From Eledone cirrhosa (taxonomy: Eukaryota): a DNA stretch of 64,000 nt. Made by a program: the position numbers and the translations under genes. The DNA lies in the NCBI GenBank assembly GCA_964016885.1, contig OZ024742.1:254758001-254822000 (forward strand), written 5' to 3'. How positions within the stretch are numbered: the first letter of the stretch is position 1; each line of letters opens with the position of its first letter. Positions 24,626 to 26,699 of the stretch are shown in pieces. The notes under the pieces were generated by a model. The model did not search any database and was not told the origin of the DNA. It saw only the letters and a program-made list of their open reading frames with translations.

Positions 24626-25307
24626 ATACGTAATATACGTAATAATAATAATAATAATATATATATATATATATATATATATATATATATATATATATAT
24701 ATATATATATATATATATATATATATATATATATATATATATATATATATATATATATATATATATATATATATATATATATATATATATATATATATAT
24801 ATATATATATATATATATATATATATATATATATATATATATATATATATATATATATATATATATATATAAATATATATATATATATATATATATATAT
24901 ATATATATATATATATATGAAATACGTCCCTTCACGCACAAGGCGCCAAGGTACGCATGTATTGTCCAACCAAGTGCCAATGTGGTTCAAGGCTCGTTAA
25001 TTTATTAACCCGCCATTGAACCACATTGGCACTTGGTTGGACAATACATGCGTAGCTTGGCGCCTTGTGCGTGAAGGGACGTATTTCATATTACTACTAC
25101 CTCCACTAACGTTGAGAACAAACCGGGTCATTCCGACTGCTGCTAGCAATAGCGGTGGCTAGTTTGACCTACCTCCTTTTGCCTCTATCTTTGCTACGGC
25201 CCTTGATAAACGTGTTCTACATCATCCACTCTCATCCCAGGAGCAGTTTTTGATAGCGCTAGTTTGTGATTTAAATTCAGGAATTTTATATTCTTTGAAT
25301 GAAAAGA

Positions 25308-25391
25308 ACCTTCTGACGAGAATCTTTCTTTGCAACGAAGGCCGTAAGGTCTCCGTTTTATTTTTGGGATTCGAAACCGATCGGTAAAGGT
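25308..25391 (+). ncRNA. type I hammerhead ribozyme (monomer 1)
   Basis: ACCTT-CTGACGA-GAATC..GATTC-GAAA-CCGATCGG-TA-AAGGT; fully canonical core; predicted cut after 25386. Confidence 0.92.
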
Positions 25392-25790
25392 AACTATAGT
25401 AGGTAAAGTCAATTTTTTTAAATTTATTTTGAAACTTTTTCATTATTTACTAAACCTTGTTTATATTTGTTCTGGCTCGTTAATTTATTAACCCGCCATT
25501 GAACCACATTGGCACTTGGTTGGACAATACATGCGTACCTTGGCGCCTTGTGCGTGAAGGGACGTATTTCATATTACTACTACCTCCACTAACGTTGAGA
25601 ACAAACCGGGTCATTCCGACTGCTGCTAGCAATAGCGGTGGCTAGTTTGACCTACCTCCTTTTGCCTCTATCTTTGCTATGGCCCTTGATAAACCTGTTC
25701 TACATCATCCACTCTCATCCCAGGAACAGTTTTTCATAGCGCTAGTTTGTGATTTAAATTCAGGAATTTTATATTCTTTGAATGAAAAGA

Positions 25791-25874
25791 ACCTTCTGAC
25801 GAGAATCTTTCTTTGCAACGAAGGCCGTATGGTCTCCGTTTTATTTTTGGGATTCGAAACCGATCGGTAAAGGT
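25791..25874 (+). ncRNA. type I hammerhead ribozyme (monomer 2)
   Basis: Same motif exactly 483 bp downstream. Confidence 0.92.
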
Positions 25875-26699
25875 AACTATAGTAGGTAAAGTCAATTTTT
25901 TAAAATTTATTTTGAAACTTTTTCATTATTTACTAAACCTTGTTTATATATATATATATATATATATATATATATATATATATATATATATATATATATA
26001 TATATATATATATATATATATATTGTTATACTTGGGGAGGGTCATATTTGCGTAACATTGCCAGAATTAATAACAGAACACACTCACTGTTTGGTTGGTT
26101 TTCGCTTCTCGCTGTCTTTTATTATATCTGCGATCTAACTTACTCGGTCCTCAATGTTGCCATTGACTGACCGGCGGTCAAAAATAATACAGATACAATA
26201 TAGACACAAACACATATATATATATATATAGTTTACATAATTTACATAAATCTTTCGTTGCACATCTGCAACATCGTCAGTGGTGTTATATTCATTGTTC
26301 CTCCTGTTGTGTTGTATGTCTACGCCATTTTTTCATATATATATATATATATATATATACACACGTGTATACAGATACAGACACATATACATATGGCAAA
26401 CTCACACACGCATATGTGCACATACACACACTCACATGTTAATAGATTTTACTCTTATTGGAACGCTCTCACACACACACACGCACACATGTTAATAGTT
26501 ATACGTCATGTATCTTTGACAGTATCAAAAGACAGCGTCTTTCACTCTCTCTCTCTCCCTCCCGCTATCTCCCTCTTGTAGTATGTCTCTTTCTTTTACT
26601 CTCACTCTCTCTCTCTCTTTGTAACTTACATTCTATCGAAAAACGCTGTTACGAATGGGAGGAGTAAGAGGAGAAAAAAGCGACTTCGTCACTTCGCCT

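Follow-up and report, generated by a model that had tools for sequence, protein, structure and literature searches.

A non-LTR retrozyme family of Eledone cirrhosa carrying the end footprint of Penelope-like elements

The 64,000-nucleotide stretch of the Eledone cirrhosa genome analyzed here (the window) contains a non-coding tandem repeat that, judged from its sequence, is a new family of animal non-LTR retrozymes, a kind of element already in print. We consider it very probable that this family is a non-autonomous element driven by Penelope-like elements. Our more detailed reading, which we regard as reasonably probable, is that the retrozyme is copied into both ends of a (TA)n break by a Penelope-like protein, which likely belongs to the Hydra clade, and that the template is probably a 483-nt RNA circle. 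All of the evidence is DNA; ribozyme cutting, the RNA circle and the helper protein are predictions made from it.

The insertion lies between a left (TA)n tract at 24657-24918 and a right one at 25945-26023 (both without strand). It begins with an inverted short arm, or stub, of 76 bp on the minus strand (24915-24990), which is the reverse complement of unit positions 26-101. The long arm follows on the plus strand and consists of unit 1 (24991-25473; 483 bp, with six minor-allele changes) and unit 2 (25474-25949; 476 bp), which differs from unit 1 by seven substitutions. The first-pass annotation of this DNA had described the same succession of microsatellite, inverted stub, two monomers and microsatellite, with a stub length of 75 bp. 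The outer end of the stub is start site B, where ATAT is common to the stub and the left microsatellite, and its inner end falls inside the 3' arm of a hairpin at site A. The outer end of unit 2 is start site A and continues into the right (TA)n tract. An internal copy of the 108-nt tail, running from site A (25466) to site B (25574), occupies 25467-25574 (+), and the bulged hairpin directly behind site A occupies 25468-25504 (+). The sequence at 26040-26358 (minus strand) lies outside the element; it is an end repeat, truncated, from another coding Penelope-like family and ends in the same right TA tract. The annotation had also pointed to a single-nucleotide difference at which the stub agrees with unit 2 rather than unit 1. 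This agreement, at unit position 65, is real, but it says nothing about the origin of the stub, because the letter is the family allele (92 C, 1 G) and the difference is a private change of unit 1. Unit positions 155 and 160 (25145 and 25150) switch jointly between A-T and G-C in all scored loci; this pair is predicted to close a GCAA loop and thereby to form a second conserved hairpin. Among listed sequencing runs, no RNA run was found to contain the unit; contigs of two runs from one study, of unrecorded kind, also cover it and were excluded from the evidence.

A second copy of the insertion is found at 28315-29349 (+), with one mismatch in 1026 bases. It had been listed as a separate element 2. 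Since it sits across a 200-N gap (27619-27818) from the first copy and has near-identical flanks (five mismatches in 2399 non-TA bases), it is probably the same insertion, doubled in the assembly. A 417-bp block is present on one side only and is missing from the flanks of the 28315-29349 copy. We left this copy out of all locus counts, in which overlapping loci were counted once; the exception is the set for the Hydra-like coding family described below, where some of the 50 loci overlap.

Each unit contains a predicted type I hammerhead ribozyme. Hammerhead 1 spans 25308-25391 (+), with a 5-bp stem I (25308-25312/25387-25391), a core starting at 25313 and a predicted cut after 25386. Hammerhead 2 spans 25791-25874 (+), with its core starting at 25796 and a predicted cut after 25869. 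Thus, the spacing of 483 bp and the lack of an ORF were correctly reported earlier; the longest stop-free frame around the unit has 74 codons. The two predicted cuts would delimit a 483-nt monomer RNA (25387-25869, plus strand), the predicted fold of which has a z-score of -2.1 (3 of 100 shuffles were equally stable). The hammerhead had been called perfect. Its core is indeed canonical, but the adjective does not hold: stem II is 53 nt long, stem III (25376-25385) is a 10-nt palindrome, Rfam gave no hammerhead match even at E<=5, and for a hammerhead alone a misfold is favored over the ribozyme fold (-23.7 versus -21.6 kcal/mol). The miRNA matches returned by Rfam merely reflect the inverted repeat formed by stub and unit. 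Two copies cofold as a double hammerhead at -58.0 kcal/mol, compared to 2 x -23.7 kcal/mol, and in this folding model the ribozyme looks as if it were built for cutting as a dimer.

The hammerhead is well conserved. Only 4 changes were found in 1684 core cells, and in a set of 12 variants the pairing of stems I to III is 95-99% and includes two-sided changes; an inner helix drawn within stem II is only 64% paired in the same variants. Among the first 100 of 1503 exact pattern matches, counted by hand, the center of stem III is self-complementary in 95 and occurs in three spellings (77, 13 and 5 copies). A variant stem III of 11 nt with an odd center also occurs. Dimer-type hammerheads with a palindromic helix III are already known (PMC4209133), and 8 of 9 Xenopus retrozyme dimers are reported to have failed to cut (bioRxiv 10.64898/2026.07.22.740005). 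Long stem II inserts, of 36 to about 90 nt, are also present in hammerheads of several Hydra-like coding families (L040, L282, L235), and short descriptors would therefore miss such ribozymes.

A search of the 3.0-Gb assembly returned 151 matches in the best 40 of 1375 candidate places. The full-length ones are 93-100% identical, so the unit is a repeat and not a chance similarity. The genome-wide copy-number search that had been suggested earlier found 246 exact A ends and 116 exact B ends, which gives a family size of at least 246 insertions. Most loci hold one to four units. Features by which retrozymes are recognized recur throughout the family: copies are dispersed and non-coding, have a GC content of 39%, form dimers to multimers (the longest arm, in L213, has 8.8 units) with one predicted hammerhead per unit, and have target duplications of more than 4 bp where such duplications are present (12 and 16 bp). 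The earlier assignment to the non-LTR retrozymes is therefore supported by a non-coding, many-copy tandem repeat with a type I hammerhead. Related subfamilies have units of 485, 464 and 485 bp at 86, 68 and 77% identity, respectively, and more distant non-coding families with units of about 660 and about 550 bp share mainly the tail region with it. A search with variant motifs retrieved 49 mutated copies and no new coding family.

The window holds further repeats. Another non-coding tandem at 38140-39217, 2.5 copies of a 430-bp unit between TA tracts, has a short hammerhead at 38929 with a palindromic stem III and is probably another retrozyme family. Two sister retrozyme fragments face each other across a single TA tract at about 56190-56620 (+) and 56746-56900 (-); they derive from units of about 550 nt and 660 nt, both with the hairpin behind site A. 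Five pieces (32025-35660; about 8160-10775; 57480-58380, minus strand; about 37540-37860; and near 21350, minus strand) are presumably coding Penelope-like sequences of at least four groups, which we take to be Poseidon-, Neptune-, Nematis- and Hydra-like from their motifs. The families of the pieces at 32025-35660 and about 8160-10775 have intact frames of 900 and 775 aa elsewhere. We further assume that 50059-53418 (-) represents gag/pol pieces of an LTR-retrotransposon-like element, that several other pieces are RTE-like LINEs, and that the repeats at 39412 and 43323 are tRNA-derived.

The units of one insertion probably descend from a single monomer. In 39 loci, unit divergence was 0.96% within an arm, 1.07% between the arms of a locus and 1.54% between loci; these first 39 loci were chosen by full-length match, which inflates arm lengths, and their allele counts are not independent of descent. 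At nine polymorphic sites we observed one mixed locus-by-site case, compared to 2-19 expected per site (P<=2e-4 for eight sites, 0.008 for one). Seven alleles private to one locus are present in all of its units, six of them across both arms. Five other private alleles occur in only some units of their locus, which one circle does not explain. The 8.8-unit arm of L213 together with its stub shows 2 single differences and 12 shared ones. No indel was found in 148 crossings of the cut site, which argues against jumps between cut linear monomers. Taken together, allele sharing shows a monomer bottleneck and points to repeated copying of one monomer. It thus supports the earlier proposal that the array records such copying, and it fits either a circle or an uncut linear multimer. 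A circle would be the simplest template, and we lean toward it.

The arms stop at fixed positions. In 78 loci, 123 of 129 arms end at site A (unit position about 476) or at site B (about 101), which are 108 nt apart; L218, the array of which continues past the analyzed stretch, was excluded from this count. Two arms are present in 45 of the 78 loci, with an A end paired to a B end in 42, two A ends in one and another end in two. This A+B pairing was seen in all 27 two-armed loci among the best matches and in 15 of the 18 taken by position. A separate count of exact end motifs (C1 to C3:254.78 Mb; 100 A and 47 B ends) yielded 26 outward A+B pairs, and neither an inverted A+A nor a B+B pair within this range. 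The same pairing recurs in 6 of 8 cases in two more distant sister subfamilies; one sister-family locus (L056) also looks A+A. Penelope-like insertions are described as combining a truncated copy in inverted orientation with a tail that is present at just one end (PMC8557442; PMC3846280), and in vitro both target strands are cut and extended from two internal start sites (PMC11167929). The A+B ends and the inverted truncated arm are this Penelope tail footprint. The stub had been proposed as the link to the Penelope machinery, and this link is borne out: the stub is one of two arms, and the outer ends of the family obey the tail rule. The published tail length of 30-40 bp is not matched, as the retrozyme tail is about three times longer; tails of coding Penelope-like families in the same genome range from about 37 to 162 nt.

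The inner starts of the arms are scattered. Seven of 171 coincide with the cut site, where 2.8 would be expected; this excess is not significant (scan P 0.39) and hints only faintly at templates that were linear and cut. We rejected a cluster of starts at unit positions 236-260 (17/171, scan P 0.53) as a transcription start. L046 (2924-3943) and L111 are single-armed, and in each the two flanks are reverse complements of one another (71 bp in L046), perhaps through fold-back repair at a TA end.

The first 37 nt of the tail fold as a bulged hairpin in which 3 of 12 pairs covary between families, and they are the least variable part of the unit (0.57% versus 0.9-3.2%). A motif drawn from the non-coding families also matched the end of a young coding element, the copies of which are about 98% identical. 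This end is joined to the element's endonuclease in 6 of 25 loci, the hairpin stands directly behind its own site A (0/20,000 shuffles), and its own two-ended loci are A+B in 12 of 12 cases. The ORFs (L404-L406) encode a C-terminal endonuclease and contain a CxCX5C linker, DKT, CxxC and CxH motifs and no CCHH, while RWK reads RWR; Pfam gave no match for them. Based on these motifs, we place the young family as Hydra-like. Genome-wide, the hairpin motif has 23,918 matches compared to 137 for the reversed control, and the variable pair of the hairpin is Watson-Crick in 96 of the first 100 matches (hand count). In related end repeats the tail measures about 90-165 nt, and an ORF lies upstream in 3 of 20 sampled loci. 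Beyond the hairpin, the Hydra-like coding family and the retrozyme unit share nothing, and their tails measure 162 and 108 nt, respectively. No direct coding parent of the unit was found. We regard the hairpin-sharing Hydra-like family with fair confidence as the best candidate for the helper.

Other coding families compared less well. None of ten other coding-family tails aligned to the retrozyme tail better than shuffles (best p 0.13), and the tail model had no match in the end repeats of other coding families. The search for a helper led to other tails in the Neptune-like family of the window (about 37 nt), a Poseidon-like family (44 nt), a second Neptune-like family (one end seen), a fourth one (about 66 nt), a very young Hydra-like family and the Nematis-like families. 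For a further Hydra-like family (L217), the likeness to the retrozyme tail did not reach significance (p 0.07-0.38), and L209, which had seemed to be a Nematis-like ORF leading into the hairpin family, is in fact a chimeric junction. At L141, L232 and L353, retrozyme arms are joined to coding Penelope-like families of three kinds, one Neptune-like, one Nematis-like and a further Hydra-like one, each in a single case, which suggests template switches. In the copy described here, the inner boundary of the stub falls within the 3' arm of the hairpin, and the long arm sets in immediately past the 5' arm; in this single case, complementary letters of the hairpin may therefore have served to join the two cDNAs.

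TA tracts hold most of the insertions, and such tracts frequently mark where another Penelope-like element ends, as the right-hand one does here. A TA-like run is present on at least one side in 99 of 103 loci and on both sides in 73. Target duplications outside the TA runs were detected in 2 of the 103 loci (16 bp in L003, 514-2459, and 12 bp in L018, 1134-2459; control, 5 of 10,506 pairs) and are hidden by TA elsewhere. Since these duplications lie outside the TA runs, some of the TA appears to be new, with at least one tract per insertion (17 and 63 nt) apparently formed during integration or later. Either enzyme slippage at the start sites or subsequent expansion would explain this.

According to our preferred reading, arrays would be transcribed (no promoter was found, and the best resemblance to U2/U6 upstream regions, 14-16 of 22 matches to an snRNA promoter, is at shuffle level). 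Two hammerheads would pair via the palindromic stem III, cut, and free a 483-nt monomer, which a host ligase would close, as folding and known retrozymes suggest. The helper protein would then bind the hairpin behind site A, as its conservation and its presence in the coding family suggest, and cut TA-rich DNA. By analogy to the published in vitro work, one DNA end would prime reverse transcription at A and the other at B, in line with the observed A+B rule. Both enzymes would run around the same, presumably circular, template for the 0.1 to 9 turns seen in arm lengths and allele sharing, and the two cDNAs would be joined head to head. In the present copy, the A arm would have made 1.99 turns and the B arm would have halted after 76 nt.

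A rival reading concerns the template. With the same two-site Penelope priming, a young and uniform source array might instead supply a linear multimer, uncut or cut only in part, circles being a side product or absent; we see this as possible, though on the unlikely side. In vitro, the anole enzyme works mainly on uncut RNA (PMC11167929), a cut site without scars is expected from uncut RNA no less than from a circle, and both the slight surplus of arms that start there and the five partly shared private alleles point in this direction. However, linear copying can only shorten arrays, yet a near-identical 9-unit arm exists, and given about 1% unit divergence in the best-matching loci, mixed units would be expected, whereas mixing was seen in one case. 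The five partly shared alleles could also be accounted for if single units had been inserted and were later expanded and homogenized as satellite DNA by unequal exchange or gene conversion, as proposed for vertebrate retrozymes (bioRxiv 10.64898/2026.07.22.740005). We consider this highly improbable, as private alleles are common to inverted arms, most loci hold only one to four units, and the arms end at two fixed sites beside TA and start at scattered points.

The identity of the helper is a further question, which overlaps with these. That Neptune-like, Nematis-like or several Penelope families serve the retrozyme instead of the Hydra-like one seems rather unlikely to us. A Neptune-like family has intact 775-aa frames and a hammerhead that agrees with that of the retrozyme in its 3' half and, approximately, in the spacing of 80 nt between cut and site A, and one sister-family arm continues into that family's tail. 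In one insertion, a Nematis-like coding arm with an A end is joined to an arm of a sister retrozyme with a B end. Against this stand the ten coding tails that aligned no better than shuffles and the tail model without a match, and each chimera is a single case. Finally, the unit could itself be the pLTR of a coding Penelope element with 5'-truncated copies, an outcome that the first-pass annotation had named as fatal to its own reading if it always applied. The tail rule, the hammerhead and the TA targeting resemble those of such end repeats, and the genome contains tens of thousands of Penelope endonuclease candidates, a sample of which was examined. However, units abut without an ORF, up to nine in a row, and none of them leads into a Penelope ORF, either in the 58 sampled loci of the family or in the sister-family loci examined. 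While an ancestral origin of the unit from a pLTR is likely, we give very little credence to its being one today. We retain a Penelope-driven retrozyme with a Hydra-like helper and a circular template as our preferred reading.

Circular RNAs have been described for animal non-LTR retrozymes, and Penelope elements were named as likely carriers (Cervera and de la Pena 2020, PMC7229834). With these elements and with those of the vertebrate study (bioRxiv 10.64898/2026.07.22.740005; Li, Clavereau and Pollet 2026), which tied vertebrate retrozymes to pLTRs and left the mechanism open, the present family shares, as far as the accessible text of both goes, non-coding tandem units of a few hundred bases, a type I hammerhead per unit, a GC content under 50%, dispersed copies and a proposed ride on Penelope-like elements via circular RNA. 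At 483 bp, the unit slightly exceeds the range of 150-450 bp given in PMC7229834 and falls within the 51-972 bp of 10.64898/2026.07.22.740005, and the hammerhead differs by its long stem II. Inverted arms, fixed ends and a tail are not described in the accessible text of either paper ("inverted" has no match in that of PMC7229834); that of PMC7229834 does not mention cephalopods, and no mollusc is among the species groups in that of 10.64898/2026.07.22.740005. In a literature search with Repbase and most subscription papers outside its scope, we found no publication on a cephalopod retrozyme, retrozyme tails, this hairpin or this family, in agreement with the earlier remark that the family was not known as described.

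The likeness to endonuclease-bearing Penelope-like elements (PMC8557442; PMC3846280; PMC11167929), in the sections available, comprises partial tandems, an inverted 5'-truncated copy, a tail at one end, two internal start sites and AT-rich or (TA)n targets, as well as a hammerhead with a palindromic helix III (PMC4209133). In contrast, the retrozyme has no ORF and a tail of 108 nt instead of 30-40, and TAT is common to the target and both of its ends, whereas no homology is needed for the anole enzyme to start (PMC11167929). Insertion into (TA)n and hammerheads are likewise reported for the Hydra clade (PMC8557442), the CxCX5C, DKT, CxxC and CxH motifs of which are present in the hairpin-sharing coding family, descent of the retrozyme not being implied; the Hydra clade section of that paper makes no mention of tails of 90-165 nt or of the hairpin. 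Chlamys elements such as MRC1 (PMC8557442, section available) are likewise non-autonomous Penelope derivatives in multicopy head-to-tail arrangement, but most have no hammerheads and share 3' sequence with their helper, whereas the present retrozyme shares only the hairpin motif.

The class of element is already known, and the footprint recurs in sister subfamilies, so the present copy is not unique. Both retrozyme papers propose Penelope-like carriers and, in their accessible text, leave the mechanism open (PMC7229834; 10.64898/2026.07.22.740005). The retrozyme DNA described here displays the two-start-site footprint of Penelope and a 37-nt hairpin that also occurs in a young coding family. 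Because footprint and hairpin together name an RNA, a cis-signal and a candidate protein, the standing proposal becomes testable with the existing in vitro assay for the anole enzyme. More tentatively, and with less than even confidence, we suggest that the hairpin behind site A may be an address label for a group of Hydra-clade Penelope proteins. Dissimilar retrozymes (483, 464-485, about 550 and about 660 nt) that carry it would then be pasted by an enzyme acting as a dimer, which would use one circle made by the ribozyme to prime the two ends of a break 108 nt apart, with new TA arising from slipping at the start, as in the related telomerase. If this is true, the retrozymes and their helpers would make up a complete two-component, circle-templated integration system.
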